Counted from the first letter of the stretch, positions 275 through 62,694 are shown. The stretch: 64,000 nucleotides of DNA from Gammaproteobacteria bacterium (GCA_016182805.1 JACPFV010000003.1:16285-80284); one strand, 5' to 3'. The notes: a model not told the origin generated them from the letters alone. Numbers and translations are program-made.

Positions 275-2653
275 CTACTTGGCGGCCGTGACCGCCGCCG
301 AACCGGCGGAAGCCCGGTCCGACCGGTAGAACCACGCCCCCAGCGCCGGCAGCAGGCAGATCGCGCCGAGCATGTTGACCAGGAACATGAACGACAGCAG
401 CAGGCCCATGTCGGCCTGGAACTTGAGCGCGGACATGGTCCAGGTGCCGACGCCGATGGCCATGGTGATGGCGGTGAAGACGGCGGCGGTGCCGCGCTGG
501 CGCATGGCCTCGTGGAAGGCGTCGCGGAACGACAGGCCGCGGTCGTCCATCTCGTGCTGGATGCGCTCGAACAGGTAGATGCCGTAGTCCACGCCGACGC
601 CGACGCCCAGCGCGATCACCGGCAGCGTGGCGACCTTCAGGCCGATGCCCAGCACCGCCATCAGGGCGTTGCAGAAGATCGACACCATGGTCAGCGGCAC
701 GATGATGCAGATCACGGCGGCCCAGGAGCGGAAGGTGATGAGGCACAGCAGCGTCAGCGCGCCGAAGATCGCCAGCAGCATCGTCACCTCGGCTTCGCCG
801 ACGGCCTCGTTGGTCGCGGCCATCACGCCGACGTTGCCGGTGGCCAGGCGCAGGTTCACGCCCTCCACCGGGTTGTCGGCGATGAAGCGCTTGATCTCAT
901 CGACCGCGTGCGCCACCGTCGTGCCATCGTGGTTCTTCATGAACACGATGATCTGGATCGCGCGGCAGCCGTCGGTGTTGAAGCCCAGGTTGGGGTCGAA
1001 GGCCTTGGAGCCGGCGGACAGGCCGGTCTGCGTGCGCGGCAGCGCGCGCCAGCGCGGGTTGCCCTCGTTGAACGCCGAGATCACCAGCTTGCCGATGCCG
1101 CCGACGCTGACCACGGACTGCACGCCGTCCACCCCGCGCGCGAACATCTCGAAGCGGTCGATGAGGTTGACCACCTCGTAGTGCAGGCAGGAGTCGCCCT
1201 CGAAGCTCTTCGCTTCGGCGATGACCGTGAGCACGTCCACGCCGATGTTGTACGAGCCGGCGATCGCGCGGCTGTCCTGGTTGTAGCGCGCGTCGGGGTG
1301 CAGCTCCGGCACGCCGGTGCCGGAATCGCCGATCACCAGTCCGCGCGACAGCCAGGTCGTCACGCCCAGCAGCGCGACGCACACCGCGAACACGGCCACC
1401 GACGCGCGCGGCTCGGCGCACTTGGCGATGCCGCGCCACGCCGCCGCCATGCCGGGCGACGGCGGCCGCAGCGAGTAGCGGCGGCTCGACTCCTCGAGGC
1501 GGATGTGGGTCAGCAGGATCGGCAGGATCATCTTGTTGGTGACGATCATCAGCAGCACGCCCAGGCAGGCGGTGATGCCCAGCTCGTGCACGATCGGGAT
1601 GTCGATGAACATGATGACCGCGAAGCCCAGCGCATTGGTCAGCAGCGCCACGGCGCCGGGGATGAACAGCTTGCGGAACGACGCGCGCGAAGCCTCCACG
1701 GAGCTGGCGCCGTTCGCCACCTCCTGGCGCCAGGCGTTGGTCATCTGCACCGCGTGCGATACGCCGATGGAGAAGATCAGGAACGGCACGAGGATGGACA
1801 TCGGGTCGATGCCGAAGCCGATCAGCGGCAGCGTGCCGATCAGCCACAGCACCGGCAACAGCGCCACCACCAGCGCGGTCACGGTCAGGCGCACCGAGCG
1901 CGAGTACGCGTACAGCAGCGCCAGCGTGATGACGAAGGCCAGCGCGAAGAACGCGAACACGCCGAGCAGGCCGTAGATCACGTCGCCGAGCAGGCGCGCG
2001 AAGCCGATGATGTTGACCTCGATCTTGTCGTTCTCGTACTTGGCGCGGATCTCTTCGAGCTTCTTCTGGACGTCCCAGTAGTCCACCTTGACCGCGTTCG
2101 GCTCGTCCGGGTTGTACTCCTGCAGGTCGGCGCGGATCATCGCGCCTTTCTGGTCGTTGGCGACCAGCAGGCCGATCTGGCCGGACAGCGCGACGTTGCG
2201 CCTGACCTTCGCCAGTTGCTCCGGCGTGCCGGAAAACTCGGCCGGTACCACCGGCTCGCCGTTGAAGCCGTACTCCGTGATCTCGATGTAGTAGGTGTTC
2301 GGCGTGAAGATGGACGAAACGCGCGTGCGGTTGATGCCGGGGATGAAGAACACGTCGTCCGTGGCCTTCTGCATCGCGTCCATGAATTCGGGGTTGTAGA
2401 TGTCCCCCTCGCCCTTCCAGCGCAGGTTCACCAGCAGCGTATTGGCGCCCGAGAACTCGCGCATGTACTCCATCATCGTGCGCATGTACTCGTGCTTGAT
2501 CGGGATCAGCTTGAGGAAACCCGGATCGAGCTTCACGTTCGTGGCGCTGTAGCCGAAGAACGCGGTGACGACGGCGAACACGCCGGCCAGCAAGTGGCGG
2601 CGGCCGATCAGGATGTTGGAAATGCGGTCGACGAGACCGTCCATGCGACTCAT
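275..2653 (-). CDS. RND superfamily transporter, MMPL/HpnN-like (paralogue a)
   Basis: Two large soluble loops are flanked by hydrophobic blocks, and the motifs GANTLLV, ATNEAV and GVGVDYGIY are shared with the other two paralogues in this window. ATG 2653 is preceded by ggggagg. I trimmed the upstream 20 codons of the listed ORF. Confidence 0.9.
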   Translation of the reverse strand: MSRMDGLVDRISNILIGRRHLLAGVFAVVTAFFGYSATNVKLDPGFLKLIPIKHEYMRTMMEYMREFSGANTLLVNLRWKGEGDIYNPEFMDAMQKATDDVFFIPGINRTRVSSIFTPNTYYIEITEYGFNGEPVVPAEFSGTPEQLAKVRRNVALSGQIGLLVANDQKGAMIRADLQEYNPDEPNAVKVDYWDVQKKLEEIRAKYENDKIEVNIIGFARLLGDVIYGLLGVFAFFALAFVITLALLYAYSRSVRLTVTALVVALLPVLWLIGTLPLIGFGIDPMSILVPFLIFSIGVSHAVQMTNAWRQEVANGASSVEASRASFRKLFIPGAVALLTNALGFAVIMFIDIPIVHELGITACLGVLLMIVTNKMILPILLTHIRLEESSRRYSLRPPSPGMAAAWRGIAKCAEPRASVAVFAVCVALLGVTTWLSRGLVIGDSGTGVPELHPDARYNQDSRAIAGSYNIGVDVLTVIAEAKSFEGDSCLHYEVVNLIDRFEMFARGVDGVQSVVSVGGIGKLVISAFNEGNPRWRALPRTQTGLSAGSKAFDPNLGFNTDGCRAIQIIVFMKNHDGTTVAHAVDEIKRFIADNPVEGVNLRLATGNVGVMAATNEAVGEAEVTMLLAIFGALTLLCLITFRSWAAVICIIVPLTMVSIFCNALMAVLGIGLKVATLPVIALGVGVGVDYGIYLFERIQHEMDDRGLSFRDAFHEAMRQRGTAAVFTAITMAIGVGTWTMSALKFQADMGLLLSFMFLVNMLGAICLLPALGAWFYRSDRASAGSAAVTAAK

Positions 2654-3672
2654 GACTTGCCTCCCCCGGACTGCACGTGGACGTGGACGCCCCCGTCCCC
2701 GCCCGTCAGCCATTCGCCCTTGCCCAGCGGCAGCACGGCGGCCAGGCCGTTGCGCTCCGGCTGCGACGCGCGCGTGAAGCGCACACCGCCGTCGTCCGAG
2801 ACGAACACCGTATTGTTGGCGCCGACCAGCACGATGCGCCCCTCCGGCGTCGCCGCGCCGCCGAACAGCGAGGTCGGCTCCGGCGTCTCGCTCTTCTTCC
2901 AGGTGGCGCCGAGATCGGCGCTGAGGAAGGCGTTGCCGCGCATGCCGAAGGCCAGCAGGCCGTTGTCCGGCAGCGCCAGCACGCCGAAGAACGAGCCGGG
3001 ATAGATGTCGCCGAGCGAGGCCCAGGTCTGGCCGTTGTCCTGCGAGCGCAGCAGCAGGCCGCGCTCGCCGACGAGGATCAGCGAGCCGTCGCCGGCCTGC
3101 GTCATCGCGTTGACGTGGTGGTCGCCGATCCCCTCATGCGTCTCGCGCTGCCAGCTCAGGCCATGGTCCGACGAGGTCAGGTACTGGCCGAACGCGCCGA
3201 ACGCGAACAGCTTGCCGCCGAACGGGCCGGCGACGCCGAGCAGCGGCTCGGAACGCTCGCCGTCGAACAGGACTTCGCGCCAGGTGTCGCCGCCGTCCTC
3301 GCTGCGCACGATCCAGGAGTCGTGGCCGACGGCGATCGCCACGCGCTCGCCGACGAAAACCGCCTGGGTGAAGCTCGATCCCCGCGCCGGCTCGATGCGC
3401 GCCTCGCGCCACGGGCCGCCGGCGCCGTCCGCGACCAGGATGTGCCCCTGCTCGCCGACGGCGACCAGCCGCGTGCCGCTGCGCGCGATGCCGTTGACCA
3501 GCAGCCGGTCCGGGTAGATCCGGGTCGGCGCGAACGGCGGGCTGGGCCGCGGCGAGAACGAGTACACGGCCGCCGCCGCGACCAGCAGCGCGACCAGGCC
3601 CGCCGGCCAGGCGCTCAGGCCGGCCCGCCGCGTCGCGCGGCGCTCCATCACCAAGGTTTCAGGCATTGCCAT
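2650..3672 (-). CDS. Ycf48-like BNR/Asp-box beta-propeller protein with an N-terminal membrane anchor
   Basis: Repeated SxDxGxxW boxes are present (SEDGGDTW, SSDHGLSW, SQDNGQTW, SADLGATW). A hydrophobic N-terminus follows MAMPETLV. The start at 3672 lies behind ggaggggg. The stop overlaps the RND start as ATGA. Confidence 0.85.
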   Translation of the reverse strand: MAMPETLVMERRATRRAGLSAWPAGLVALLVAAAAVYSFSPRPSPPFAPTRIYPDRLLVNGIARSGTRLVAVGEQGHILVADGAGGPWREARIEPARGSSFTQAVFVGERVAIAVGHDSWIVRSEDGGDTWREVLFDGERSEPLLGVAGPFGGKLFAFGAFGQYLTSSDHGLSWQRETHEGIGDHHVNAMTQAGDGSLILVGERGLLLRSQDNGQTWASLGDIYPGSFFGVLALPDNGLLAFGMRGNAFLSADLGATWKKSETPEPTSLFGGAATPEGRIVLVGANNTVFVSDDGGVRFTRASQPERNGLAAVLPLGKGEWLTGGDGGVHVHVQSGGGKS

Positions 3673-3798
3673 AGCAGAACCCCCTCCCATTCCACCGTAC
3701 AGGCGAGGGCGAACCCGCAAGGCTCCCCCTCCGCTCTTGCTTTGCCGGCTGCAGCCGTTTGCCGCAGTCTGGTCCCGGCCCGCCGGCAAGGCAAGCGT

Positions 3799-5004
3799 TC
3801 ACGCCGGCAGCTCGAACAAGGCCGCCGCGCCCATGCCGCCGCCGATGCACATCGTCGCCACGACGAAGCGCACTCCGCGCCGGCGCCCCTCGATCAGCGC
3901 ATGGCCCACCATGCGCGCGCCCGACATGCCGAAGGGATGGCCGACGGCAATCGCGCCGCCGTCCACGTTGAGCCGCTCCGCCGGAATCCCGAGTCGGTCG
4001 CGGCAGTAAATCACCTGGCAGGCGAAGGCCTCGTTCAGCTCCCACAGGCCGATGTCCGCCACCTTGAGGCCGTGCCTCTGCAACAGCTTGGGCACCGCGA
4101 ACACAGGGCCGATGCCCATTTCGTCCGGCTTGCAGCCGGCCACCGCCGTGCCGCGATACGTTCCGAGTATCGGCAGCCCGCGCCGCTGCGCCTCCGTCCG
4201 GTCCATCAGCAGCACCACCGCCGCGCCGTCCGAGAGCTGCGAGGCATTGCCCGCCGTGATGTGTTTGCCTTCCTTGACCCATTTGCCGTCCTTCCAGACT
4301 GGTTTTAGTGAAGCAAGTCCGTCCAGGGTGGTGTCGGGGCGATTGCCCTCGTCCTTGGCGAGCGTCACCGTCTCGCGCCCGGTCGGATTGCCGTCCTTGT
4401 CGAACAACTGCTTTTGCACCGCGATCGGGACGATCTCGTCGGCGAAGCGCCCGGCCGCCTGCGCGGCGGCGGTGCGGCGCTGGCTTTCCAGCGCGTACTC
4501 GTCCTGCGCCGCGCGCGAAATGCCGTAACGCGCCGCGACGAGTTCCGCCGTCTCGATCATCGGGATGTAGGCGGTCGGCTCGGCGGCGACCGCCGCCTCC
4601 GACACGGCCCGGTACGAATTCTTGTGCTTGGTCTGCGTCAGCGAAATGGATTCGAGGCCGCCGGCAACCACGATGCTCTGCTCGCCGACCATGATGTTCT
4701 TGGCACCGATGGCGATGCTCATCAGGCCCGAGGAGCACTGCCGGTCCAGCGTCATGCCGGGCACCGTGTCCGGCAGCCCGGCCGTGTAGGTGCACAGCCG
4801 GCCCAGGTTGTAGCCCTGCGTGCCCTGCTGCGCCGCGGCGCCCAGGATCACGTCGTCCACCTCGCGCGGATCCACTTTGGCGCGCTCGACCGCGGCGCGG
4901 ATCGCGTGCCCGCCCAGGACCGGCGCCTCGGTATCGTTGAATGCGCCCCGGTACGCCCGGCCGATGGCCGTACGGGCAACGGCGACGATGACCGCCTCGT
5001 TCAT
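3799..5004 (-). CDS. Acetyl-CoA C-acyltransferase (thiolase)
   Basis: The sequence has the thiolase layout with the active-site block DRQCSSGL and the C-terminal block MCIGGGMG. Confidence 0.9.
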
Positions 5005-5013
5005 GGTGGCTCC

Positions 5014-5469
5014 CTAGAAGTAGTACCGGCTGATGGTGTCCGCGATGCAGGCGGGCTTCGCCTCGTTCTCGATCTCGACCGTCACGCGGATCGTCGCCTG
5101 GACGCCGCCTTCGACCGCCTCGGCCTTGACGAGTTCACCGCGCCCGCGGATGCGCGCGCCGGCCTTGACCGGCGCCGGAAAGCGCACGCGGTCGCAGCCG
5201 TAGTTCACGCCCATGCGCATGTTGCGCACCTCAACGACCTGCGGCAGGAAGCGGCTGACCAGCGACAGCGTGAGATAGCCATGGGCGATGCAGGCGCCGA
5301 AAGGCCCGGCCTTGGCGCGCACCGGGTCCACGTGAATCCACTGGTGGTCGTCGGTCGCCTGCGCGAACTGGTTGATGCGTTCTTGCGTAACGGTCATCCA
5401 CTCGCCGGCGCCCAGCGGCTGGCCGACGGCGGCGAGGATCGCGTCCTTGGATTCGAAGACGGTGGCCAT
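5014..5469 (-). CDS. MaoC-like (R)-specific enoyl-CoA hydratase
   Basis: The hot-dog motif DDHQWIHVDP..A...PFG..IAHG is present. I trimmed to ATG 5469 from the 296-aa listed ORF. Confidence 0.85.
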   Translation of the reverse strand: MATVFESKDAILAAVGQPLGAGEWMTVTQERINQFAQATDDHQWIHVDPVRAKAGPFGACIAHGYLTLSLVSRFLPQVVEVRNMRMGVNYGCDRVRFPAPVKAGARIRGRGELVKAEAVEGGVQATIRVTVEIENEAKPACIADTISRYYF

Positions 5470-5477
5470 TGGATTTC

Positions 5478-6263
5478 TCAGGGATGCTGGCTGGAGGCGG
5501 AGATCACCTCGCCCACCAGGTACGAGGCGTAGTCGGAGGCCAGGAACACGATGACGTTGGCCATCTCCCAGACCTCGGCGGCACGGCCGAAAGCCTCGCG
5601 GCCGGCCAGTTCCTTGAGCAGGGCCTCCGGCGCCGACTTCTTCAGGTGCTCGTGCAGTGCGATGGACGGGGCGACGGCATTGATGCGGATGCCGAACTCC
5701 GCCGCCTCCAGCGCACTGCATCGCGTCAGCGCCATCACGCCGGCCTTGGCCGCGGCGTAATGCGCCTGCTCCTTTTGCGCGCGCCAGCCGAGCACCGAGG
5801 CGTTGTTGACGATGGCGCCGCGGCCGCGCGGCTGCATGCGCTGCAACATCGCACGGGTCATGCGGAAGGTGCCGGTCAGGGTCACGTCCAGCACCCGGCC
5901 CCATTCCTCGTCCGTCATTTCAACGATGCGCTTGCTGCCGCCCAGGCCGGCGTTGTTGACCAGCACGTCCACGCCGCCGGTCTTCCGCTCGGCCTCGTCC
6001 ACCAGCGCCTGCACCTCGGCCTCGTTGGCGACGTTGGCGATTTGGCCGTGAACCTCGCAGCCGGGCTGCGCCGCGCGCAGCTTGGCCGCCGCCTCGTCGA
6101 GTCGGCGCGGGTGGATGTCGGAAATCACCAGCGCGCGGCAGCCTTCCTCGGCGCAGCGTTGCGCGGTGGCGAAGCCGATGCCGCCGCCGGCCGCCGCGGT
6201 AATCAGCACAGCCTTGCCCTTCAGCAAGCCGTGGCCGGGGACGTATTGAGGGACCGCGGTCAT
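5478..6263 (-). CDS. SDR family oxidoreductase
   Basis: The Rossmann motif TAAAGGGIG, NNAG and YAAAKAG catalytic motifs are present. The start ATG at 6263 overlaps the upstream stop (ATGA). Confidence 0.85.
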   Translation of the reverse strand: MTAVPQYVPGHGLLKGKAVLITAAAGGGIGFATAQRCAEEGCRALVISDIHPRRLDEAAAKLRAAQPGCEVHGQIANVANEAEVQALVDEAERKTGGVDVLVNNAGLGGSKRIVEMTDEEWGRVLDVTLTGTFRMTRAMLQRMQPRGRGAIVNNASVLGWRAQKEQAHYAAAKAGVMALTRCSALEAAEFGIRINAVAPSIALHEHLKKSAPEALLKELAGREAFGRAAEVWEMANVIVFLASDYASYLVGEVISASSQHP

Positions 6264-7450
6264 GACTTGCCCTTCTCGAAGCGCGGCTCCTTGGGCATGC
6301 CCAGGGCGCGCTCCGCGATGATGTTGAGCTGGATTTCGTTGGTGCCGGCGTAGATCGTGTCGGCACGGGTGAACAGGAAAAGCTGTTGCAGGCGCGTGCG
6401 CGTGGGATCGTCGCTCACCACGTCGCCGTCCGGCCCCAGCACGTCCATGGCGAGCTTGCCCAGCTCGCGGTGCCAATTGGACCAGTAGTACTTGTACATC
6501 ATGGCCTCGCGCCGCAAGTGCCCGTCCTGCGCACCGGCCAGCATGCGCAGCGCGTTGTAGCGCATCACCTTGAGGCCGATCCAGGCCTGGGCGATGCGCG
6601 CGCGGATCGCCGGATCGCTAGCCGCGCCATTGACGCGCGCCATTTCGCAGACGAGGTCCAGCTCGTGTGCGAAATGCATCTGCTGGCCCAGCGTCGATAC
6701 GCCGCGCTCGAAGCCCAGCAGTGCCATGGCGATGGCCCAGCCCTCGCCCGGCTGGCCGACGATGTTCTCCGCAGCGGTGCGCGCGCCATCGAAGAACACC
6801 TCGTTGAATTCGGCGGTGCCGGTGAGCTGCTTGATCGGCCGGATCGCGATGCCCGGCTGGTCCAGCGGCACCAGCAGGAACGACAGGCCGCGGTTGCCCT
6901 TCGATTCGGGATCGCTGCGCGCGACCACGAAGATCCATTGCGACTCGTGCGCCAGCGAGGTCCAGACCTTCTGGCCGTGGAGCACCCACTCGCCGGTCGC
7001 CGGATCGCGACGCGCGCGCGTCTGCACGTTGGCGAGGTCGGAGCCGGCGTTCGGCTCCGAATAGCCCTGGCACCAGAACTCGGTGCCCGCGACGATGCCG
7101 GGGAGAAACCGCCGCTTCTGCGCCTCGGTGCCGTAGGCGATCAAGGTCGGGCCGATCAGCCCCTCGCCGATGTGGCCCATGCGTCCCGGACCGCCGGCGC
7201 GGGCGTATTCCTCGTGGAAGATCACCTGCTGCGCGATGGACAGCCCGCGCCCGCCGTGCTCGCGCGGCCAGCCCACGCAGGTCCAGCCGCCGCGTGCCAG
7301 CTCCCGCTCCCAGCGTTTGCGCAATTCGGGGTGGGCGTCCTCGTCGCCCGGGCCGCCGCGGTGGCGCAGGCACTCGAACTCGCCGCGCAAGTGCGCGCGC
7401 AGCCACCGCGCCACTTCCAGGCGGAAGATTTCGTCGTCGCTCATCTTCAT
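6260..7450 (-). CDS. Acyl-CoA dehydrogenase, alpha-type partner of a pair
   Basis: ACAD blocks are present, including GYSEPNAGSD and the C-terminal IYAGTNEIQLNIIAER. The start MKMSDDE overlaps the stop of the upstream ACAD (ATGA). Confidence 0.9.
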   Translation of the reverse strand: MKMSDDEIFRLEVARWLRAHLRGEFECLRHRGGPGDEDAHPELRKRWERELARGGWTCVGWPREHGGRGLSIAQQVIFHEEYARAGGPGRMGHIGEGLIGPTLIAYGTEAQKRRFLPGIVAGTEFWCQGYSEPNAGSDLANVQTRARRDPATGEWVLHGQKVWTSLAHESQWIFVVARSDPESKGNRGLSFLLVPLDQPGIAIRPIKQLTGTAEFNEVFFDGARTAAENIVGQPGEGWAIAMALLGFERGVSTLGQQMHFAHELDLVCEMARVNGAASDPAIRARIAQAWIGLKVMRYNALRMLAGAQDGHLRREAMMYKYYWSNWHRELGKLAMDVLGPDGDVVSDDPTRTRLQQLFLFTRADTIYAGTNEIQLNIIAERALGMPKEPRFEKGKS

Positions 7451-8586
7451 CGCGCCGGTCCCAGCAGGGGAGACGCCACGCGCTCGTGCAGCGCCGGCGT
7501 CGAGCCGAACCAGTGGCTGGTACCCTGCGCGCGCTTGAAATAGAGCTGCGGGTCGTATTCCCAGGTGAAGCCGACGCCGCCGTGAAGCTGGATCGCCTCC
7601 TGAGCGCAGAAGAAGAAGGCGTCCGAGGCCAGGCTCTTGGCGCAGGCCGCCTCCAGCGACAGCTCGGTCGTGCCCGGCCCGGCGCTTGCCACGCGCGCCG
7701 CGCCGTACACCACCGAGCGCGCCGCCTCGATCATCACCATCATCTCGGCGCAGCGGTGCTTGACCGCCTGGAACGAGGCGACGGGCTGGCCGAACTGCAC
7801 GCGCTGCGCGGTGTAGGCCAGGGTCAGGTCCAGGCACTGCTGTGCACCGCCGAGCTGCTCGGCCGCCAGGGCGATGGCCGCGAAATCGGCGGTGCGATTG
7901 AGGCCTTCGCCCACTTCCGGGCCTTCGCCCAGCAGCGCGTCTTCGGGCAGCCCGACGCCGTCCAACCGCACTTCCGCGATGCGGCGGGTCGGGTCCAGCG
8001 TCTTGAGCGGCTTGCGCACCAAGTCTTTGGCCTTGCCGTCGACCGCGAACAAGGCCCAGCGCCGCTCCAGCAGCGCGGGGATCAGCAACAGCTCGGCGCT
8101 GGCGCCGTCCGGCACATGCCGGAATCGGCCCTCCAGCACGTAGCGCGAACCTAGGCGGCGGGCGCTCGCGGTCAGCGCGTCCGGCCGCCAGTCCACGCCG
8201 CTGTCGGCCAGCGCCAGAGTCGCCGTCATTTCGCCCGAAGCGAGCCGGGGCAGCAGGCGCCGGCGCGCGTCTTCCCGCGCCGCTTCCATGAGCGCCGTGG
8301 CGGCCAGGCAGATCGAGGAGAAGAACGGCGTGCAGACCAGGCGCCGCCCCATCTGCTCCATCAACAGCGTCAGCTCGACGAAAGACAGGCCCAGGCCGCC
8401 GTGGGCCTCGGGGATGTGCGTGCCGCACCAGCCCAGCTCCGCGCCGATGCGCTGCCAGAGGGCGGGGTCGTAGCCGGTGTCGTTCTCCATCGCCCGGCGC
8501 ACCGCGGCGGAGCTGCTGGCGTCCGCGAGGAAGTTTTCGGCGGAGTCGCGGATCAGCTTCTGGTCGTCGGACAGGGCGAAGTTCAT
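7447..8586 (-). CDS. Acyl-CoA dehydrogenase family protein, beta-type partner
   Basis: The ACAD fold is indicated by FGQPVASFQAVKH and HGGVGFTWEYD, and the TNEIQ block of its partner is absent. The gene is adjacent to and overlaps the next ACAD. Confidence 0.85.
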   Translation of the reverse strand: MNFALSDDQKLIRDSAENFLADASSSAAVRRAMENDTGYDPALWQRIGAELGWCGTHIPEAHGGLGLSFVELTLLMEQMGRRLVCTPFFSSICLAATALMEAAREDARRRLLPRLASGEMTATLALADSGVDWRPDALTASARRLGSRYVLEGRFRHVPDGASAELLLIPALLERRWALFAVDGKAKDLVRKPLKTLDPTRRIAEVRLDGVGLPEDALLGEGPEVGEGLNRTADFAAIALAAEQLGGAQQCLDLTLAYTAQRVQFGQPVASFQAVKHRCAEMMVMIEAARSVVYGAARVASAGPGTTELSLEAACAKSLASDAFFFCAQEAIQLHGGVGFTWEYDPQLYFKRAQGTSHWFGSTPALHERVASPLLGPAR

Positions 8587-8593
8587 GCGCGGC

Positions 8594-10623: not shown

Positions 10624-10637
10624 GACGGAACTCGCGG

Positions 10638-11693: not shown

Positions 11694-11695
11694 CG

Positions 11696-53866: not shown

Positions 53867-53879
53867 TGACGCGGCGCAT

Positions 53880-53906: not shown

Positions 53907-53945
53907 AAGTCGCGTAACCCCTTGATACCACGGAGGGTGCGCCAA

Positions 53946-54254: not shown

Positions 54255-54676
54255 ACCCCGCGGCCGCGACGCTCGAAGCGATCCTGCAAGGCGAAGCCGC
54301 CTGCGCGGAGACGTTGCTGGCCACGCTCAACGACGAGCACGCGGCGCTGCTCGCCAACGACGTCGAGCGCCTGCGCGGCGCCACCGACGCCAAGCTGCAA
54401 GCACTGAAGCGGGTGGAAGCCTGCGGCCGGCAGCGCGAAGCGCTGCTCGGCGGCCGGACTCCGCCGCCGGAATCCGCTGCGGGCCGCCTGTGGGAGAAGC
54501 TGCTGGACGTGGCCACCCGCTGCCGCGACCGGAACCAGGCCAATGCCGCCTTGCTCGACGCCCGCCGCGCGCGCACGCTGTGGGCGCTGCGGTATCTGGG
54601 CGTCACCACTCCCCTGTACGGCCGATACGGGCAGACCCCGAGCGTCACGACACAGCGCGTCCTCGCACGCGCGTAG
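54251..54676 (+). CDS. flgN: Flagellar export chaperone FlgN family
   Basis: The protein is ~140 aa and helical, with the pattern LL..L..E...L. It overlaps flgM (ATGA). Confidence 0.8.
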   Translation: MNPAAATLEAILQGEAACAETLLATLNDEHAALLANDVERLRGATDAKLQALKRVEACGRQREALLGGRTPPPESAAGRLWEKLLDVATRCRDRNQANAALLDARRARTLWALRYLGVTTPLYGRYGQTPSVTTQRVLARA

Positions 54677-54696
54677 CCTCGCTCCGCGGTACGCTC

Positions 54697-55431: not shown

Positions 55432-55560
55432 CCGGAACAGATCCCTGTAGAGCATTGCTACTCGTGCGCGGCATGCGCGCGCGGCGCCGCTAACATGAAC
55501 TCGGCGGTCGCAGTCGGGTCATAGGGGCCTTTCCGCCGCCGGACTTCACGAGGGTGAAAC

Positions 55561-55587
55561 TCAAAATCTTCCACCGCACGCCGACAT
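55561..55587 (+). promoter_or_regulatory. Sigma28-like promoter upstream of the GGEKF protein
   Basis: The sequence is TCAA-N15-GCCGACAT, with the same -35 variant as the cheV promoter and one extra -10 mismatch. It lies ~40 nt upstream of ATG 55626. Confidence 0.4.
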
Positions 55588-55625
55588 TCCGTACACACGG
55601 AAGTCCTGCATTCCGGAGGCTCGCC

Positions 55626-56771
55626 ATGCCGCATACGCTCGCCTACGCATCCGCCCCGCGCAACGCGCAGGACCCGGTCGTCGCCGACGAGTTCTCCCGC
55701 TACTACCTGCACGAGACCCGGCTGTCCGCGGCCACGCTGTTCGGCACCGTCGCGATCGCCCTGATCCTGGCGCCGCTGTACCGCCAGTCCGTGTTCGGCG
55801 CGGCGGCACCGGCCGCGGTGCTGCTGATCGAATGGGGACTCATCATCCCCGCCTGCCTGCTCGGCGCCTATATGCGCTCGCGCCCGCAGCAGGCCGAGCT
55901 GCACGCGCGGCTGGGGCTGGCGGCAACCGTCGCCATCGCGGCGGGCCTGATCGGCGTGTTCTGCGCCTGGCGGCAGGCCGGCGTCGCCTTTCCGACCGAG
56001 TTCGTCGGCCTGTTCCTGATCGCCGCCCTGGCGCTGGGCGGCCTGCTGCAAAGCCAGGTGCTGCCGGCGGCCCTCGCCCTGCTGGCGATCGACGCCGCCA
56101 CCGGCTACTGGGTGGACGGCTGGAGCGTGGTCGCCAACGCGCACGCGTTCAGCGACACCCTGACCGCGGTGCTCGGCTACATCGTCGGCCAGCACACCGA
56201 GCGCACCACGCAGCAGATTTGGCTCGACGCCCGGCGCTTCGAGCGCATGGCCGGCGAAGACCCGCTGACCCGGCTGTCCAACCGCCGCGCCTACGAGACC
56301 CATTGCGGCGCCGCGCTGGCGCAGGCCGGACGCGAGCAGCGTCGCGTCGCGGTCGGCATCCTCGACGTCGACTGCTTCAAGGAATACAACGACCACTACG
56401 GGCACATGACCGGCGACGGCGCCCTGATGCTGGTCGCCGACGCGCTGAGCCGCGCCGCGCGCCGGCCGCTGGACGCCGTGTGCCGCTTCGGCGGCGAGAA
56501 ATTCGCGGTGTTCTGGTACGACCTCTCCCCGGACAACGCGCGCGAGCGCGCCGAAGCCGTGGTCGCGGCGGTGCGCGACCTGTACATCCCGCACCGCCAC
56601 TCCCGCGTCGGCGACCGCATCACGGTGAGCCTCGGCGCAGTCCACTTCCTGCCCGGCCCGCGGCTCCGGCTGGCGGACGCGCTCGCCGCCGCCGAGCTGC
56701 GCCTGCGCGACGCGAAGGACGCCGGCCGCAACCGCGCAGTGATGCACGAGCTGGCCCCGCCGCCGTCGTAG
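55626..56771 (+). CDS. Polytopic membrane protein with a degenerate GGDEF domain (GGEKF)
   Basis: About 6 hydrophobic helices are followed by DPLTRLSNRR...DVDCFKEYND..GH..GD...RPLDAVCRFGGEKF. The I-site RxxD is intact. ATG 55626 lies behind ggagg. Confidence 0.85.
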   Translation: MPHTLAYASAPRNAQDPVVADEFSRYYLHETRLSAATLFGTVAIALILAPLYRQSVFGAAAPAAVLLIEWGLIIPACLLGAYMRSRPQQAELHARLGLAATVAIAAGLIGVFCAWRQAGVAFPTEFVGLFLIAALALGGLLQSQVLPAALALLAIDAATGYWVDGWSVVANAHAFSDTLTAVLGYIVGQHTERTTQQIWLDARRFERMAGEDPLTRLSNRRAYETHCGAALAQAGREQRRVAVGILDVDCFKEYNDHYGHMTGDGALMLVADALSRAARRPLDAVCRFGGEKFAVFWYDLSPDNARERAEAVVAAVRDLYIPHRHSRVGDRITVSLGAVHFLPGPRLRLADALAAAELRLRDAKDAGRNRAVMHELAPPPS

Positions 56772-56872
56772 TCGAGCCTCGCCGCCGCGACAGCGCGCCC
56801 CGGCTCCGCGGCCCTTATTGCGCAGGGGCGGCACGCCTACGCTGCACGCTCGTCCGACCCGCGGGGGCAGCG

Positions 56873-57343
56873 ATGCCGATCACGGTCCATCTGGAAATCA
56901 ATCGCGAGTTCGCCGTCGCGGCGGGCGCCGCCGACGCCTTCGAGTTCCTGGCGCACGTCCCGCACACCCGCCGCTGCTTTCCCGACCTGGAGCGGCTGGT
57001 GGCGCTCGGCGGGCAGCGGTACCGCTGGGAGATCCGGCCGATCGGCACGGTCGGCATCAAGCATCGCGTGATCTACGGCTGCCGCTACGCCGCCAGCCGG
57101 CGCGACAAGACCGTCGAATGGCAGCCGCTGGACGACATCGGCAACGGCCGCGTCGCCGGCCGCTGGCGCGTCGCCACCGACCGCCGCGGCGCGCGCCTGT
57201 CGTTCCACACCGAGGCGCGGCTGCTGGTGCCGGACGTGCCGCTGCCGTTCCGCCTGCTGGCCGCGCCGTACGTGGAGCGGGAATTCCTGCGGCGCGTCGA
57301 GGGCTACCACGAGCGTGTGCAGGCGGTGCTGGGAGAAACCTAA
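56873..57343 (+). CDS. SRPBCC (polyketide-cyclase/START-like) protein
   Basis: The protein is ~156 aa, with a pattern typical of this fold and G/C-rich third codon positions. This is a by-eye assignment only. Confidence 0.6.
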   Translation: MPITVHLEINREFAVAAGAADAFEFLAHVPHTRRCFPDLERLVALGGQRYRWEIRPIGTVGIKHRVIYGCRYAASRRDKTVEWQPLDDIGNGRVAGRWRVATDRRGARLSFHTEARLLVPDVPLPFRLLAAPYVEREFLRRVEGYHERVQAVLGET

Positions 57344-57502: not shown

Positions 57503-58744
57503 TCAGCGGTGCAGCATGACGAAGACCTGGAACTCGCCGACCAGGAAGCCCAGCGCGGCGCCGACCGCGATCAGAATCCACTCGTCCTGCTGGAAGGCCG
57601 GGCGCAACAGCTTCTCGAACTCGTCCTCGTTCAGCTCCTGCATCTTGGCGATCAGCGTGTTCTTCACGTCCATCGCGTCGGCCGCGTAGGTCTCGACGTG
57701 GCGCAGGGCTTCCGGCAGCTTCTCCACGATCTTCTCGGCGACCGCTTCCTTCATTCCCTGGTAACGGGCGGTGCCCACCGCCATGACGACGAAAGGCTTG
57801 GCCAGGCCGGACTGCTCGTCCACCATCTGCTTCACGTGCTTCTGCACCATCTGGTACAGGCGGTCGGACAGCGGCCCGCGCAGCACCGCGTCGAGCACCG
57901 CGGTCGGCGTGATGACCTCGTCGGCGATCAGCGCGCCGTAGCGCGCGGAGACCTCCCTGCGCCGGCGCAGGAACATGCCCTGCCACTCGAACAGCCCGAA
58001 CAGGTAGCGCGTCGGCCGCTTCGGGCGGAACACCATTTTGAGCGCCAGCCAGTCCGTGGCCCAGCCGGTGAAGCCGCCGAACACCGGCATGACCCAGGGC
58101 GAATGGGTCAGCGCCCAGGTGACGGCCTGCACGCAGCCGATGACGAAGCCGAACCAGATGCCGGAGCGCGCGATGAACTTGAACTCCTCGCGGCCGACCT
58201 CCTGGAAGATGCGGTTCAGCAGGCGCTTGTCGCGCATCAGGTTGGTGACGACCATGTCCTTCAGATCGAACACCTTGTCGATATCGCGCTGAAGCTCGCG
58301 CATGATCTGCGCGACGAGGTCCGGGGCGTCGGCCTGCACGCGCCGGATCACGCGCTGCCGCAAGGTCTCCGGCAGGATTTCCCACAGGCCCGGCTGATAG
58401 GCTGCGGCAACCTCGCGGGTCACGTCCTCGACCGCGGCGAGCATCGGCTGCTCGATCTCGCGCGCCACGCGCTTCGGGTCCAGGCGGCCGAACACGTCGG
58501 CGGGCTTGAGCAGCCGTGAAGTCATGGTGTCGCAGGCGATGGCGGCCATCGCCGCGGCCTTGCGCGGCACGATGCCCTGCCAGCCCAGGAACGGCGGCTT
58601 GAAGCCGACGAACTCGACCGGCTCGAACATCATGCGGATCGCCACCAGCTTGGTGACGTAGCCGATTACAGCCGCGACCAGCGGCATCGAGGCGTACAGC
58701 CACCAATTCCGCTGCAAGTCCGCAAGGATCTCGTTCCAGCTCAT
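57503..58744 (-). CDS. DUF445-family membrane protein
   Basis: The N-terminal helix and the block FLGWQGIVPRKA, plus a C-terminal TM with GAALGFLVG, match the DUF445 pattern as I remember it. Confidence 0.75.
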   Translation of the reverse strand: MSWNEILADLQRNWWLYASMPLVAAVIGYVTKLVAIRMMFEPVEFVGFKPPFLGWQGIVPRKAAAMAAIACDTMTSRLLKPADVFGRLDPKRVAREIEQPMLAAVEDVTREVAAAYQPGLWEILPETLRQRVIRRVQADAPDLVAQIMRELQRDIDKVFDLKDMVVTNLMRDKRLLNRIFQEVGREEFKFIARSGIWFGFVIGCVQAVTWALTHSPWVMPVFGGFTGWATDWLALKMVFRPKRPTRYLFGLFEWQGMFLRRRREVSARYGALIADEVITPTAVLDAVLRGPLSDRLYQMVQKHVKQMVDEQSGLAKPFVVMAVGTARYQGMKEAVAEKIVEKLPEALRHVETYAADAMDVKNTLIAKMQELNEDEFEKLLRPAFQQDEWILIAVGAALGFLVGEFQVFVMLHR

Positions 58745-58804: not shown

Positions 58805-59998
58805 TCAGCGATCCCTCTGCAGCACCCGGCGCAGCGGGGCCAGACGCTCCCAGGCGCCGTTCCTGCGCGCCCATTCCAGCAGACTGGCGACGCCCGCGTC
58901 GCCGGCATCGGCCAGGGCGCGGGCCACCGCCTGCTGGCGCGCCTCCGGCAGCCGCTCGACGATGTCCGCCAGCGGCGCCCACAGGCTCTGCGCCTGCGCC
59001 GCCGCGGCAATGCGGCCGATGGTCTGCGACTCCAGGGCCTCGGCCAGGCCCGCCAGCCGGCGGCGCCCTTCGGCGTCCATGCGCTCGGCCAACGGCAGGA
59101 GCTGCGTCCAGGCCTGGGCCGCGTCGGCCGCCGCCACGATGCTGCGCAGGACCTCGGGCGCCTGGATCATCGGCAGGTTGATGAGCCGCGTCTGGGCCGC
59201 CTCGCTCATCAGCGACACGATCGGCAGCACCGCCACCCACAAGCCCTGCCGCTGCACCACCCGCACCATGCTGCCGAGCACGCCCTCGTCCTCGGCGATC
59301 GCGATGTCGCCCAGGCGCCGCAGCAGGCCGGCGCTCAGGTTGCCCATCATCGCCAGCGCATCCGGCCACAGACGATCCGCATCCGCCGTCGCCATCCGCA
59401 GCACGCGCCGCAGCCGCGCCTCGGACAGCAGGCCGACGATGGACTCCAGGCGCCGCGGCGACTCGACGAAGAAGGCGACCTCCAGCAGGGCGCGGTCGTC
59501 GTCGGTGTCGTCGATCACCGCCTTGATCGTGCTGTCGGGCAGCGCGTCGACGAAGCGCGCCATGGTGATGTACTCGCCGCGCGCGCGCAGCTCGTGCGCC
59601 ACCGCGACCACGCGGTCCACCGGGATGCCGGCGATCACGTCGCGCGCGCGGCGCGGGTCCAGCTCCAGGCAGACGTCGGCCAGGAACGCGATCGGCATCT
59701 TCGCCGCCACGTCCACCGCCCGCTGCGACGGCATGACTCCGGCGATGCGCGCGCACAGCATGGGGCCGAACACGGTGCGCCCGAGCTGCGCCACCAGCGC
59801 CGCCGGCAGCAGCTTGGCCGCCGCCGCCAGGCGGCGGAACATCGCGAGGTGGTCGTCGAACAGCGCGGCGGTGATGCGCTCGCGCAGCTCGCGCAACTGC
59901 CCCGGCTCCAGCACGTCGAGGAACGCCAGTTCCTCCGGCTCCTCGCCCAGCAGGCGGCCGAGCTTGACCCGTTCGGCGCGGGTGGCGAGGCGCGTCAC
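58805..59998 (-). CDS. Hypothetical all-helical repeat protein
   Basis: Third codon positions are G/C-rich from GTG 59998, which overlaps the upstream TGA as GTGA. The sequence has Leu/Ala-rich repeating helices. I recognised no family. Confidence 0.65.
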   Translation of the reverse strand: MTRLATRAERVKLGRLLGEEPEELAFLDVLEPGQLRELRERITAALFDDHLAMFRRLAAAAKLLPAALVAQLGRTVFGPMLCARIAGVMPSQRAVDVAAKMPIAFLADVCLELDPRRARDVIAGIPVDRVVAVAHELRARGEYITMARFVDALPDSTIKAVIDDTDDDRALLEVAFFVESPRRLESIVGLLSEARLRRVLRMATADADRLWPDALAMMGNLSAGLLRRLGDIAIAEDEGVLGSMVRVVQRQGLWVAVLPIVSLMSEAAQTRLINLPMIQAPEVLRSIVAAADAAQAWTQLLPLAERMDAEGRRRLAGLAEALESQTIGRIAAAAQAQSLWAPLADIVERLPEARQQAVARALADAGDAGVASLLEWARRNGAWERLAPLRRVLQRDR

Positions 59999-60286
59999 GA
60001 GAACAGGACCCGGCGCACGGCCCCGCGCAGCAGGGCCGGGATGAAGCTCTCGGAGTGTTCGATCGCGCGGTCCAGATGCTCCTGCTGGCGCCGGCGCGCC
60101 GCCTGCACGCCGTGCAGCACCCGCTCGATCTCGCGCTCCGAAAGCCGGTCCAGCGCGGCGAGGTCGGCGCCGGAGCAACGCAGCTCGCGCCGCAGCGCGT
60201 CCAGCGCCGACGCGCCTATCGCGCCTATCGCGCCCCTTCGCGCCCTTCGCCGCGCTGCCGGCGCCGTTGTCCGCCCGTCGCCTCAC
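59995..60286 (-). pseudogene. Small ORF (96 aa if corrected) broken by a 1-nt frameshift inside a tandem repeat
   Basis: GTG 60286 overlaps the RND stop (GTGA). G/C enrichment at third codon positions switches frame at the C4 run 60233-60236. The downstream frame ends at TGA 59995-59997, overlapping the next gene's start. Confidence 0.5.
60211..60247. repeat. Four-unit 9/10-bp tandem repeat
   Basis: The units are cgcgcctat, cgcgcctat, cgcgcccctt and cgcgccctt, read directly from the sequence. Confidence 0.85.
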
Positions 60287-62694
60287 GGATGGCCGTCCGT
60301 CAGCGCGGCGTCCGCGCCGGCGCTCAGGTCCTCGCCGGCGTGCTTGCGCTCCTCGCCGGCCAGGAAGTGCGCGAGCGCCGGCAGCACGAAGATCGCACCG
60401 AACATGTTGGCGGTGAACGCGAACACCAGCAGCAGACCCATATCCGCCTGGAACTGGAGCTTGGACAACAGCCAGGTGACAACGCTCACCCCGAGCGCCA
60501 GGCCGGTGAACAGCACCGCCTTGCCGGTCTGCTTGAGCGTCCGGTAGTAGGCCTCTTCCAGCGACTGCCCCTTGCGCAGGCCCTCGGCCATCACGCTGTA
60601 GATGTAGATGCCGTAGTCCACGCCGATGCCGGAGGCGAGCGCCAGCACCGGCAGCGTCGCGACCTTCTCGCCGATGCCCATCAGCACCATCACGCCGTAG
60701 CCCATCATCGTGACCAACGACAGCGGCAGGACCACGCACAGCACGCCGGACACGGTGCGGAAGGACAGCCACAGGAACACCAGGATCACGACGTACACGT
60801 AGCCGACCACCGGCAGCTCGTTCTCCTTGACCACCTCATTGGTCGCGGCCATGACGCCGACGTTGCCGGAGGCGAGGCGGAACTTGACCTGGGCGTCCGG
60901 GTTCTGCGGCTTGTAGTTCTTCACCGCCTGCACCAGGCGCGCGATGGTCTCGGCCTTGTGGTCGGTGGTGAAGATCATCAGCGCCAGCGCGTCGCAATCG
61001 TCGTTGAGCAAGCCGGTCGTACTCGGCACGACCGCCGAGGACTGCGCCAGCGAGTCGCGGTCGCGCGGCAGGATCTCGGCGTTGAGGCGACCTTCGTTCA
61101 GGCCCTGGTAGGCGAGCTTGGACAGGTCGAGCAGCGACATGACGTCGCGCACGCCGTCCTGGTTGCGCATGTACCAGCCGAAGCGGTCCATCTCGTCCAT
61201 GATCTCGAACTCGATGCACGCATCCGGCACCGTTTCCGCGATCACCTTGAGCTGATCCACGCCCAGCGCGAAGTGATGCGCGATGGTGCGGGCGTCCTGG
61301 TTGAAGCGGGACTCCGGGCGCAGCTCCGGCACGCCTTCCTGGGTCTCGCCGATCTGAAGTTTCGGGTACAGCATCAGCGACCAGGCCAGCAGGCCGGCGC
61401 AGACCGCGAGCACAGCCACCGCCGGCCCGCGCCGCGTGACCTTGGCCAGGGTGCGGAACAGCGCATCGCCGTACTGCTCGCGCTTCTCCTGCGCGCGCTT
61501 GAACCCTTCCGGGTCCGGGATGCGCATGTACGACAGCAACTGCGGCATCAGCAGCTTGTTGGTGACGATGATCGCGGCCATGCCGAAGGCGGCGTTGACC
61601 GACATCTCGCGGATCACGTCAATGTCGATCAGGTAGATCGTGGCGAAGCCGGCGACGTCGGTGATGAGCGCCGTCGTGCCCGGGATCGCCAGTGCGCGGA
61701 AGGTGGCGAGCGAGGCGTGGAAGCTGTCGGCGCGCTTGGCGTAGATCTCGTGCGCCCAGGAGTTCACGTACTGCACGCCGTGGCTGACCGAGACCGAAAG
61801 GATCAGGAACGGCACCAGGATCGCGAAGGGATCGAGGCCGAAGCCGATCAGGTGCAGCAGGCCCAGCTCCCAGATCACCGCGATGATGGACACCGCCATC
61901 GGCAGCAGCGACAGCACGAAGGAGCCGATGTAGATCCACAGCAGCAGGCTGGTCAGCACGAGGCTGAGCACGAAGAACAGCGCGACCTGCAGCGAAGCGT
62001 CGGTCATGTCGTCCACGACCTTGGCGAAGCCGATGACGTGCACCGACACCGCCTCGGTCTCGTACTTCGCGCGGATCGCCTCCAGCGCGTCGCCGACCTT
62101 GACGTAGTCCAGCTTCTCGCCGCTGATCGGGTCGTTCTCCAGCAGCTCGGCGACGATCATCGCCGCCTTGCCGTCTTCCGAGACGAGCCGTCCGATGACG
62201 TTGGCCTTGGCGACGTTGCCGCGCAGGCGCTCCATCATCTCCGGCGTCGGCTGGTAATCCGCCGGCACCACGGTCTCGCCGGCCAGGCCGCCCTCGATCA
62301 CCTCGACGTACAGGATGTTCGGCGTGAACAGCGAGGTAACGCGCGCGCGGTCCACGCCCGGCGTCAGGAATACCTCGTCCGTGACCTGGCGCAGCGCCTC
62401 CATGAATTCGGGCTCGTAAATGTCCTTGCCCTTGCGGTTCTCCAGCGCCACCAGCACGGTGTTGGCGCCGCCGAAGTCCTGGTAATACTCCAGGAAGGTC
62501 TGCATGTACGGGTGCTGCTTGGGCACCATCTTGAGCCAGCCGGCGTCCGGCTTGAGCTGCGCGGCCTGCCAGCCCAGGAATACCGTCATCAAAGCCAGCA
62601 GCGCCAGCGTGAACGGCCGGCCGCGGAACACCAAGGGCTCGACCACGCGCAGGATGCGCTGCGTCCAGTTGCCCGATTGCGTTGCGGCGGCCAT
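60283..62694 (-). CDS. RND superfamily transporter, MMPL/HpnN-like (paralogue c)
   Basis: The protein is 803 aa and shares blocks with paralogues a and b (GANTVLVAL, GFAKVVDD, SGNVGVMAATNE, GIGVDYGIY). The start abuts the propeller gene's stop. Confidence 0.9.
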   Translation of the reverse strand: MAAATQSGNWTQRILRVVEPLVFRGRPFTLALLALMTVFLGWQAAQLKPDAGWLKMVPKQHPYMQTFLEYYQDFGGANTVLVALENRKGKDIYEPEFMEALRQVTDEVFLTPGVDRARVTSLFTPNILYVEVIEGGLAGETVVPADYQPTPEMMERLRGNVAKANVIGRLVSEDGKAAMIVAELLENDPISGEKLDYVKVGDALEAIRAKYETEAVSVHVIGFAKVVDDMTDASLQVALFFVLSLVLTSLLLWIYIGSFVLSLLPMAVSIIAVIWELGLLHLIGFGLDPFAILVPFLILSVSVSHGVQYVNSWAHEIYAKRADSFHASLATFRALAIPGTTALITDVAGFATIYLIDIDVIREMSVNAAFGMAAIIVTNKLLMPQLLSYMRIPDPEGFKRAQEKREQYGDALFRTLAKVTRRGPAVAVLAVCAGLLAWSLMLYPKLQIGETQEGVPELRPESRFNQDARTIAHHFALGVDQLKVIAETVPDACIEFEIMDEMDRFGWYMRNQDGVRDVMSLLDLSKLAYQGLNEGRLNAEILPRDRDSLAQSSAVVPSTTGLLNDDCDALALMIFTTDHKAETIARLVQAVKNYKPQNPDAQVKFRLASGNVGVMAATNEVVKENELPVVGYVYVVILVFLWLSFRTVSGVLCVVLPLSLVTMMGYGVMVLMGIGEKVATLPVLALASGIGVDYGIYIYSVMAEGLRKGQSLEEAYYRTLKQTGKAVLFTGLALGVSVVTWLLSKLQFQADMGLLLVFAFTANMFGAIFVLPALAHFLAGEERKHAGEDLSAGADAALTDGHP

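Follow-up and report, generated by a model that had tools for sequence, protein, structure and literature searches.

How steroids and their toxic intermediates pass through the envelope of Gram-negative bacteria is unresolved (PMC8399759; PMC4810484). A stretch of DNA of 64 kb and ~70% G+C from a gammaproteobacterium (GCA_016182805.1, JACPFV010000003.1:16285-80284), here called the window, carries three genes for RND-type permeases (RND1, 275-2653; RND2, 33488-36292; RND3, 60283-62694) and, between RND1 and RND2, a gene set of the 9,10-seco type for steroid catabolism. An original prediction, made from the sequence alone, held that the three pumps are paralogues which bracket the steroid genes, that each is preceded by a different periplasmic partner, and that they move hydrophobic substrates. 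The analysis reported here shows that one clade of these permeases, that of RND1, is a conserved component of a steroid C/D-ring operon across two proteobacterial classes; that RND2 belongs to a partner-less long form linked to hsaA-kstD and to HAE1 pumps; and that the partners only seem to differ, an impression created by gene orientation and gene decay.

The permease family and its split gene arrangements were already known, and RND or DUF1329 genes in steroid clusters have been mentioned in passing, namely an RND gene of P. stutzeri Chol1 and the DUF1329 gene ORF61 of C. testosteroni (10.1101/072470; PMC8399759). Those genes resemble the present ones by description, but they were neither assigned to a four-component family nor made the subject of a survey. 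In the paper library searched, literature linking steroids to DUF1329 or HAE3 was limited to the remark of Price et al., besides one paper on the P. aeruginosa pangenome that was not opened. The RND1 clade is a concrete and genetically tractable candidate, and it offers a defined substrate context for a family of unknown mechanism.

Family placement of the three permeases

Genes were called by third-position GC, and essentially every called gene (a few short stretches excepted) was scanned against Pfam, selected genes also being compared with NCBIfam. The three RND genes, all on the minus strand, are indeed paralogous, at 37-53% identity: 43% for RND1-RND3, 48-53% for RND2-RND3 and 37-41% for RND1-RND2. 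The sequence blocks said to be common to them exist, but none is shared by all three, each being found in two. GANTVL, GFAKVV and SGNVGVMAATNE are confined to RND2 and RND3, their RND1 counterparts being GANTLL, GFARLL and TGNVGVMAATNE, while GVGVDYGIY is present in RND1 and RND2 and reads GIGVDYGIY in RND3.

RND1 (792 aa), RND2 (934 aa) and RND3 (803 aa) all pass the gathering score of Pfam MMPL. Their best NCBIfam match is the HAE3 model TIGR00921 (184, 102 and 174 bits, respectively), whose cut-off of 352 bits is not reached; the HAE1 model TIGR00915 gives ~27 bits (cut-off 940). The view that they are hydrophobe-type transporters and not HAE1 drug pumps is upheld by this comparison. The Pfam MMPL threshold is passed and the fold is nearest to MmpL3/4/5, but the HpnN equivalog cut-offs are far off (TIGR03480, 44-77 bits against 752; NF052374, 24-33 against 1100). 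HpnN identity was rejected on these scores and on the lack of hopanoid genes in the window. Also rejected were identity with mycobacterial MmpL (HAE2; TIGR00833, 68-94 bits against 875), with AcrB-type HAE1 pumps (the TIGR00915 score, a TMt of ~0.38 to AcrB for the RND2 model, and no genes for a membrane fusion protein (MFP) or outer-membrane factor (OMF) in the window) and with the sterol transporter BstA (NF045600, 28.6 and 33.7 bits against 1400, with no match to RND2). AupA/AupB of Marinobacter, considered as possible DUF1302/DUF1329 alkane-uptake proteins, were dropped as comparators: the paper describes AupA as FadL-like and the two DUFs are unmentioned in it.

To place the permeases, one genome per GTDB species was scanned with an alignment of the paralogues, which yielded 80 loci; counts of gene layout are based on 85. 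Open reading frames (ORFs) in these loci were labelled from BLASTP matches to two reference sets, the annotated proteins of the window and DUF1329 and DUF1302 seeds verified with Pfam, and neighbour-joining trees of 87 and 94 RNDs were built with 50 bootstraps, AmeD not being included. The commonest layout, in ~50 of the 85 loci, is DUF1329, propeller, RND, and DUF1302 is present in 45; the dominant order DUF1302, DUF1329, propeller, RND extends over Gamma- and Alphaproteobacteria, Opitutaceae and Acidobacteriota. RND1, RND2 and RND3 all nest within this cassette family, as separate orthogroups (bootstraps 50/50, 50/50 and 41/50, respectively). Judged by the TIGR00921 match, the hydropathy pattern and, for RND2, a structure model, all three conform to its permease, an HAE3-like RND of ~790 aa with 12 transmembrane (TM) segments and two large periplasmic loops; an adjacent propeller gene on the same strand accompanies RND1 and RND3 but not RND2, and a DUF1329 gene, as a partial ORF, accompanies RND3 only. 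The trees and the literature bear out the predicted membership in a DUF1329/propeller/RND family whose mechanism is uncharacterised.

The only characterised example of the family is AmeABCD of Castellaniella defragrans 65Phen, in which AmeA is a DUF1302 protein, AmeB a DUF1329 protein, AmeC a COG4447 protein and AmeD an HAE3 RND (PMC6394551). It shares with the present genes the domain set and the order DUF1329, propeller, RND found in the RND3 module and in most of the 85 loci, the size and topology of the permease (~790 aa, 12 TM segments, two periplasmic loops), and a position within a catabolic island for a toxic hydrophobic substrate. It differs in that its context is monoterpene and not steroid degradation, in that RND1 has a propeller only, and in that RND2 has no partner and carries two insertions. 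From their architecture, the three window genes are assigned, as inner-membrane permeases, to a probable AmeD-type branch of the HAE3-like RNDs. The ancestral unit is a four-gene envelope cassette comprising an outer-membrane DUF1302 barrel, a LolA-like DUF1329 protein, a seven-bladed periplasmic propeller and the RND; RND1 keeps only the propeller, and RND2, its partners all lost, has acquired two insertions in its periplasmic part. The statement that no MFP or OMF gene accompanies the pumps applies to the window only, and canonical cassettes carry the DUF1302 barrel of the outer membrane together with the LolA-like DUF1329 protein.

Split arrangements have precedents. In P. putida, PP_2018/PP_2019 (BNR and RND) are unlinked from PP_0765/PP_0766 (DUF1302/DUF1329) (10.1101/2020.07.04.188060), and in P. 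stutzeri RCH2 the cluster is likewise split while the four-gene set is cofit (Price et al., 10.1101/072470). Propeller and RND stand apart from DUF1302/DUF1329 there as in RND1/BNR1, although the likeness is one of description and the phenotypes concern fatty esters and Tween, not steroid genes. Since the components of split clusters are still cofit, it is plausible that partners missing beside a permease are encoded in trans.

Among solved structures, HpnN (PDB 5khn, 6wu0) is the closest by sequence (E 2e-9), with only the C-terminal TM half aligning. Like the window permeases as found here, it functions without MFP or OMF; unlike RND1 and RND3 it has no propeller partner, and hpn neighbours are absent from the window.

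RND1 and its propeller at the end of a steroid operon

RND1 is preceded by the gene for a Ycf48-like propeller, BNR1 (2650-~3690, minus strand; Pfam BNR and PSII_BNR), whose stop codon overlaps the RND1 start in the sequence ATGA. By hydropathy the BNR1 N-terminus is a hydrophobic anchor or signal, its start being uncertain within 3654-3789; the NCBIfam Ycf48 match lies below cut-off, and identity to the propeller of RND3 is 34%. Upstream follows an uninterrupted run of 16 genes of β-oxidation type on the same strand (3799-18995), with an HsaC-like extradiol dioxygenase at its upstream end and intergenic gaps mostly of <=25 nt. Read from 18995 to 3799, the genes specify HsaC-like, IpdA-like and IpdB-like CoA-transferase, ChsH2-like, Ltp thiolase, NMO and ECH proteins, and then acyl-CoA dehydrogenases (ACADs), thiolase, short-chain dehydrogenase (SDR), ACADs, SDR, MaoC and thiolase. 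Together with BNR1 and RND1 they make up 18 genes of what is predicted to be an operon for steroid ring C/D degradation and β-oxidation of the side-chain type.

The nearest named relatives of RND1, as of RND2, are in Solimonas, Hydrocarboniphaga, Nevskia and Stenotrophobium, all Nevskiales. Every Nevskiales orthologue of RND1 (70-81% identity) stands in the order ACAD, SDR, MaoC, thiolase, propeller, RND, without DUF1329 or DUF1302 beside it, and the orthologues in Solimonas, Hydrocarboniphaga and Stenotrophobium end the same operon. A tblastn search of plasmids and chromids added copies 60-64% identical to RND1 in Burkholderia arboris, Caballeronia and Cupriavidus necator, and one 53% identical on plasmid pVa1 of Vibrio alfacsensis. 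In Burkholderia and Caballeronia (loci L092 and L093) the whole operon is collinear with the window from 18995 to 275, running hsaC, ipdA, ipdB, NMO, ECH, ACADs, thiolase, SDR, ACADs, SDR, MaoC, thiolase, propeller, RND. RND1 and these steroid-linked RNDs of Burkholderia, Caballeronia, Cupriavidus and Vibrio form one clade (neighbour-joining bootstrap 50/50). The recurrence of this gene order in Nevskiales as well as in Burkholderia and Caballeronia marks the propeller-RND1 pair as a conserved terminal element of the steroid C/D-ring operon of Proteobacteria.

In Cupriavidus and on the Vibrio plasmid the clade lies beside other steroid genes. In Cupriavidus necator a DUF1302/DUF1329 pair diverges from the propeller-RND pair, with two kstD-like genes and a FadD3-like gene coming next. 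On pVa1 (176 kb; L091, 2714-14121) a cassette annotated as DUF1329, DUF1302, YCF48-related protein and MMPL transporter stands next to a flavin reductase gene and to genes with annotations like those of hsaE, hsaF and hsaG, so that steroid-type catabolism and an Ame-type transporter may both be plasmid-borne in a fish-associated Vibrio. No DUF1329 or DUF1302 gene lies beside RND1 within the window; they are found 5-14 kb from its orthologues in L092 and L093, and DUF1329 is adjacent in L094 and L091.

RND2, a long form without partner

The orthologues of RND2 (59-70% identity) form a monophyletic clade (50/50 bootstraps), and neither propeller, DUF1329 nor DUF1302 genes are neighbours of its members in the surveyed loci. 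What they adjoin instead, in five of nine related loci (L006, L009, L010, L086, L087), is hsaA-kstD, which in L006, L009 and L010 directly follows the RND2 orthologue. The metagenomic contigs L086 and L087 read TetR, OEP, MFP, AcrB (1040 aa), RND2 orthologue, GH5 (516-518 aa), hsaA, kstD, with the RND2 orthologue starting 6-7 nt after the TetR-OEP-MFP-AcrB operon (L086, 1287-9727; L087, 677-9136). TetR, OEP, MFP and AcrB genes also precede it in L011 (4177-12667), with a gap of ~140 nt, and in L006 the OEP-MFP-AcrB set is present in divergent orientation; other upstream neighbours vary (SecA, esterase, SDR). Linkage to hsaA-kstD and to HAE1 pumps and the lack of a partner are the marks of this long form. 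The prediction that no MFP or OMF gene accompanies any of the three pumps holds for the called genes of the window in the Pfam scan (a few short stretches unscanned), but RND2 orthologues do follow OEP-MFP-AcrB genes in L011, L086 and L087. The tandem of HAE1 pump and Ame-type RND is not present in the window.

Alignment of the paralogues shows that proteins of the RND2 type carry two periplasmic insertions. In an AlphaFold2 (AF2) model of RND2 (pLDDT 85.4, pTM 0.80) the first, residues ~209-288, is a β subdomain, and the second, residues ~664-735 (~70 aa), a helical hairpin flanked by cysteines (…AAACDER…PDECP…). The second insertion is common to sister clades that keep the propeller (L005, L012, L017), and hence it is not a propeller replacement. 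A structural search with the model returned MmpL5, MmpL4 and MmpL3 as best matches (TMt 0.72-0.75; AcrB ~0.38), in keeping with the passing of the Pfam MMPL threshold, but identity to these proteins is only 12-14%, the host here is Gram-negative, the window yielded no gene for an MmpS partner, and the RND2 hairpin is short. MmpL4 and MmpL5 have a coiled-coil domain inserted in the second periplasmic domain, as is the RND2 hairpin; the titles of their PDB entries show that such a domain exists and say nothing on its position.

In Solimonas fluminis the orthologues of RND1 and RND2 (L010) lie on one contig ~51 kb apart and on the same strand, with hsaA-kstD on the inward side, from which it follows that the RND1...RND2 bracket is conserved. 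The claim that the pumps bracket the steroid island is correct for these two, in the window as in Solimonas fluminis, but not for RND3, which lies beyond a flagellar cluster. The same division applies to steroid linkage of the orthologues, conserved for RND1 and RND2 and not seen for RND3 in the window.

RND3, a canonical cassette

Directly upstream of RND3 is the gene for a secreted Ycf48-like propeller, BNR3 (62694-63755, minus strand; PSII_BNR 81.9 bits), stop and start overlapping in TGATG. BNR3 has the Sec signal MPMKKWMLGLATAMLAAPAWS and matches the Ycf48 structure 2xbg with E 2.8e-15. Beyond it an ORF cut by the window end (63775-64000, minus strand) encodes the C-terminal 74 codons of a DUF1329 protein, at 40.1 bits against a gathering score of 23.1 and covering profile positions 299-368 of 368. 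The RND3 module is thus a canonical cassette, with propeller and LolA-like, AmeB-type DUF1329 upstream. There is no DUF1302 gene in the window; that of RND3 would fall beyond the window end. Nearly all orthologues in the RND3 clade have one, in cassettes with DUF1329, propeller, RND and DUF1302 nearby.

Downstream of RND3, on the same strand, lie genes for a 397-aa MgtE_N-like protein (58805-59998) and a DUF445 protein (57503-58744; Pfam), homologues of which recur beside RND3-type cassettes (L013, L018, L026, L027). Some 24 kb separate RND3 from the steroid genes, occupied by a 13-kb flg cluster, chemotaxis genes and c-di-GMP/GGDEF genes. In two Nevskia metagenome-assembled genomes (MAGs) the cassette lies <=10 kb from genes most similar to the window HsaC (57%) and HsaA (65%) (L013), or to its LCM (50%) and TetR (41%) proteins (L026). 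An older association of RND3 with steroid genes, not seen in the window, is a possibility that these suggest.

Putative partners of RND2

The partner directly before each pump was described as a propeller for RND1 and RND3, as found here, and as a GH5 lipoprotein for RND2; the GH5 gene (32430-33452, minus strand; Pfam, NCBIfam) is in fact downstream, starting 35 nt after RND2. Its product, with the lipobox LSSAGC, is the remnant of an endoglycoceramidase-like protein: 340 aa against ~510 aa in homologues, two internal stretches of 16 aa and 152 aa having been lost in frame. The Pfam Cellulase match ends at profile position 166 of 272, and the endoglycoceramidase model NF051847 gives 214 bits against a cut-off of 700, so that the gene lacks a complete GH5 endoglycoceramidase domain. 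The acid/base NEP motif is kept; the HxY and TEFGA motifs were lost with the 152 residues. The glutamate of TEFG is the nucleophile of GH5 enzymes, and the window copy, lacking this segment, is most likely inactive. The deletion junction falls between two 'GE' dipeptides (VAGE|F), and the loss is thus either genuine, having occurred between short repeats, or due to a collapse in assembly of the MAG.

In L086 and L087 the RND2 orthologue and hsaA are separated by a full-length GH5 gene (516-518 aa), a conserved position suggesting that the protein may act on glycosylated lipids or steryl glycosides. No such gene occupies this position in L006, L009 and L010, nor is one present at the RND2-orthologue locus L004. 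GH5 was rejected as a conserved partner of RND2 since it is downstream, has lost the nucleophile motif and is absent from some orthologous loci. A terminator-like hairpin (32372-32392, minus strand; 8 pairs and a T-rich tail) was noted ahead of hsaA, 38 nt past the GH5 stop. It is compatible with an RND2-GH5 transcription unit separate from hsaA; such sites are no more frequent in the region than expected by chance.

The gene truly upstream of RND2 (36347-37327, minus strand) encodes an orphan without Pfam or NCBIfam match. Its hydropathy indicates a single TM segment between a cytoplasmic N-domain and a periplasmic C-domain. The family, of ~330 aa, is very rare: 1.84 billion representatives contained seven matching clusters, six besides that of the orphan itself. 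Its one traceable homologue (L088, 8001-9038) lies inside a flagellar cluster and adjoins a GGDEF gene, so that in both loci examined the family has a GGDEF neighbour and is found within a flagellar cluster or at its margin; upstream of the surveyed RND2 orthologues it is absent throughout. A candidacy as RND2 partner was rejected because of the lack of a family match, the small number of clusters and the flagellar setting of the homologue. From this setting the orphan belongs to the flagellar/c-di-GMP block, whose boundary it marks, and not to the transport module.

Possible function of the steroid-linked permeases

We consider it about even odds (a probability of ~0.5) that AmeD-type permeases of cassette origin handle steroids or their toxic intermediates in the outward direction, driven by protons. 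Each permease would use the proton gradient through an invariant Asp in TM4 and an Asp-Tyr pair in TM10; D354 and D832-Y833 (RND2 numbering) do not vary across 36 sequences. Steroids or toxic intermediates would be extracted from the inner membrane or periplasm and passed outward, with the propeller as a periplasmic docking or assembly subunit and with DUF1329 and DUF1302, encoded in trans elsewhere, taking the substrate on to the outer membrane and through it. The net effect would be that of a tolerance or overflow valve, by which steroid levels in the envelope are kept sublethal during catabolism. GH5 and the upstream orphan are excluded as subunits. The outward direction is favoured because the characterised relatives export and because the Ame phenotype was read as loss of efflux: deletion of ameABCD lowers monoterpene tolerance and raises the net influx of Nile red, and the Ame proteins are induced by monoterpene (PMC6394551). 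It is favoured also because RND2 orthologues adjoin AcrAB-TolC-type pumps and steroid degraders need protection. A review has likewise proposed the RND gene in the steroid cluster of P. stutzeri Chol1 as an efflux candidate (PMC8399759).

Several points weigh against outward handling. BNR/RND and DUF1302/DUF1329 mutants of P. putida fail when butyl stearate or Tween 20 is the carbon source (10.1101/2020.07.04.188060), a phenotype that fits acquisition as well as tolerance, and ORF61 in the steroid cluster of C. testosteroni is reported to be dispensable for degradation (10.1101/072470); these two results keep import and housekeeping roles open. The steroid-linked members are known from their genes alone, RND1 and RND2 have no DUF1302/DUF1329 of their own in the window, so that the full outward route is assumed, and RND3 has no steroid neighbour there. 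Membership in the AmeD lineage, too, is judged from cassette architecture, AmeD itself standing outside the tree.

It is possible, if less probable, that propeller-RND, DUF1302 and DUF1329 act for acquisition, moving poorly soluble steroids inward from outer to inner membrane as the Gram-negative counterpart of actinobacterial Mce4. To our knowledge no RND transporter imports, and the solved relatives found (HpnN, MmpL3, MmpL4 and MmpL5) are all exporters; yet in two proteobacterial classes the propeller-RND pair lies within catabolic operons and shares their orientation, as might suit an uptake system. The Ame work can be cited on both sides, a transposon insertion in ameB impairing growth on monoterpenes while the phenotype of the ameABCD deletion was interpreted as lost efflux (PMC6394551). 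The steroid uptake systems of Proteobacteria are unidentified (PMC4810484; PMC8399759), which leaves room for such a role, but ORF61 is not required for steroid degradation by C. testosteroni (10.1101/072470), and, Tween 20 being a detergent, the P. putida phenotype may be one of sensitivity and not of failed uptake. A wider proposal, which we regard as speculative and on balance doubtful, is that propeller-RND with DUF1302/DUF1329 is the long-sought trans-envelope steroid transporter of Gram-negative degraders, the functional counterpart of Mce4, with the RND1 clade specialised for steroids or HIP-type intermediates and RND2 feeding a neighbouring AcrAB-TolC-type pump in a two-stage relay.

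Export of an endogenous envelope lipid or outer-membrane component, the steroid adjacency being incidental or reflecting remodelling of the envelope on hydrophobic substrates, seems unlikely. Such a housekeeping role would suit the pleiotropic, cofit phenotypes for which export of a cell-wall component was proposed (Price et al., 10.1101/072470), the lack of catabolic neighbours within 10 kb of most surveyed cassettes, the position of RND3 beside DUF445 and flagellar genes, and a fold resembling the lipid exporters MmpL3 and HpnN. It sits poorly with the strict tie of the RND1 clade to the steroid operon in distant lineages, where the genes overlap or nearly adjoin, and with the induction of Ame proteins by monoterpene (PMC6394551). 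Least credible of all is that each pump has its own periplasmic substrate-handling partner, GH5 serving RND2 by deglycosylating steroid conjugates. The full-length endoglycoceramidase-like GH5 between RND2 orthologue and hsaA in L086 and L087, and the hairpin at 32392-32372, which would suit an RND2-GH5 transcription unit, speak for it. Against it stand the downstream position of GH5 and the 152 missing residues with the TEFGA nucleophile motif, the loci without GH5 (L006, L009, L010, L004), the flagellar association of the gene upstream, and a terminator count not above shuffled expectation. The idea of swappable partners did not survive: there is one partner type only, the propeller.

The steroid genes and the rest of the window

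The island between RND1 and RND2 comprises genes for HsaC-like, HsaA-like, two KstD-like, FadD3, IpdAB-like CoA-transferase, Ltp/ChsH2-like and Steroid_dh proteins. Beyond the operon that ends in RND1, ring A/B and accessory steroid genes occupy 19797-32293 on both strands (Pfam, NCBIfam). On the plus strand a KstD-like flavoprotein (19797-21533) is followed by an SDR, the FadD3 ligase (22314-23906; NCBIfam equivalog, 734.7 bits against a cut-off of 657) and, after an LCM methyltransferase and SDRs (Pfam), a TetR regulator (26899-27621; Pfam). A minus-strand block (27590-32293) holds SnoaL, Steroid_dh (28452-29246), the second KstD-like protein (29287-31023), all by Pfam, and an HsaA-like oxygenase (31088-32293; NCBIfam HsaA, 361 bits). 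No Rieske-domain (KshA-type) or α/β-hydrolase-fold (HsaD-type) protein is encoded among the scanned window genes of the island, and the steroid pathway is accordingly incomplete within the window. Two adjacent plus-strand ORFs (23903-24229 and 24263-24769) are the N- and C-terminal halves of one SDR (adh_short positions 2-88 and 104-191), the break being due to a frameshift, a stop or a fault of assembly. In the related contig L087 a DUF1329 gene (16319-17686) lies inside the steroid cluster, in the order SDR, DUF1329, ECH, and is reminiscent of C. testosteroni ORF61; the island of the window has no such gene.

Scans for tRNA genes and Rfam families (at gathering score) gave nothing across the whole 64 kb, and promoter and terminator scans gave site counts not above shuffled expectation. 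Upstream of RND2, the orphan gene is followed by one for a PAS-GGDEF protein, and 39073-57343 (minus strand) carries flgL to flgB with cheV, MCP, flgA, flgN, ycgR and GGDEF genes. Between flgF and flgE a 1.4-kb stretch of lower G+C (0.64) contains ORFs at 46646-47235 (minus strand) and 47539-47727 (plus strand): an apparent VapC-type PIN toxin (127 aa) with a 4-nt overlap to an AbrB/SpoVT-type antitoxin (69 aa), and a truncated PemK/MazF-like ORF. By visual inspection of the translations only, the stretch would represent a toxin-antitoxin insertion within the flagellar operon.

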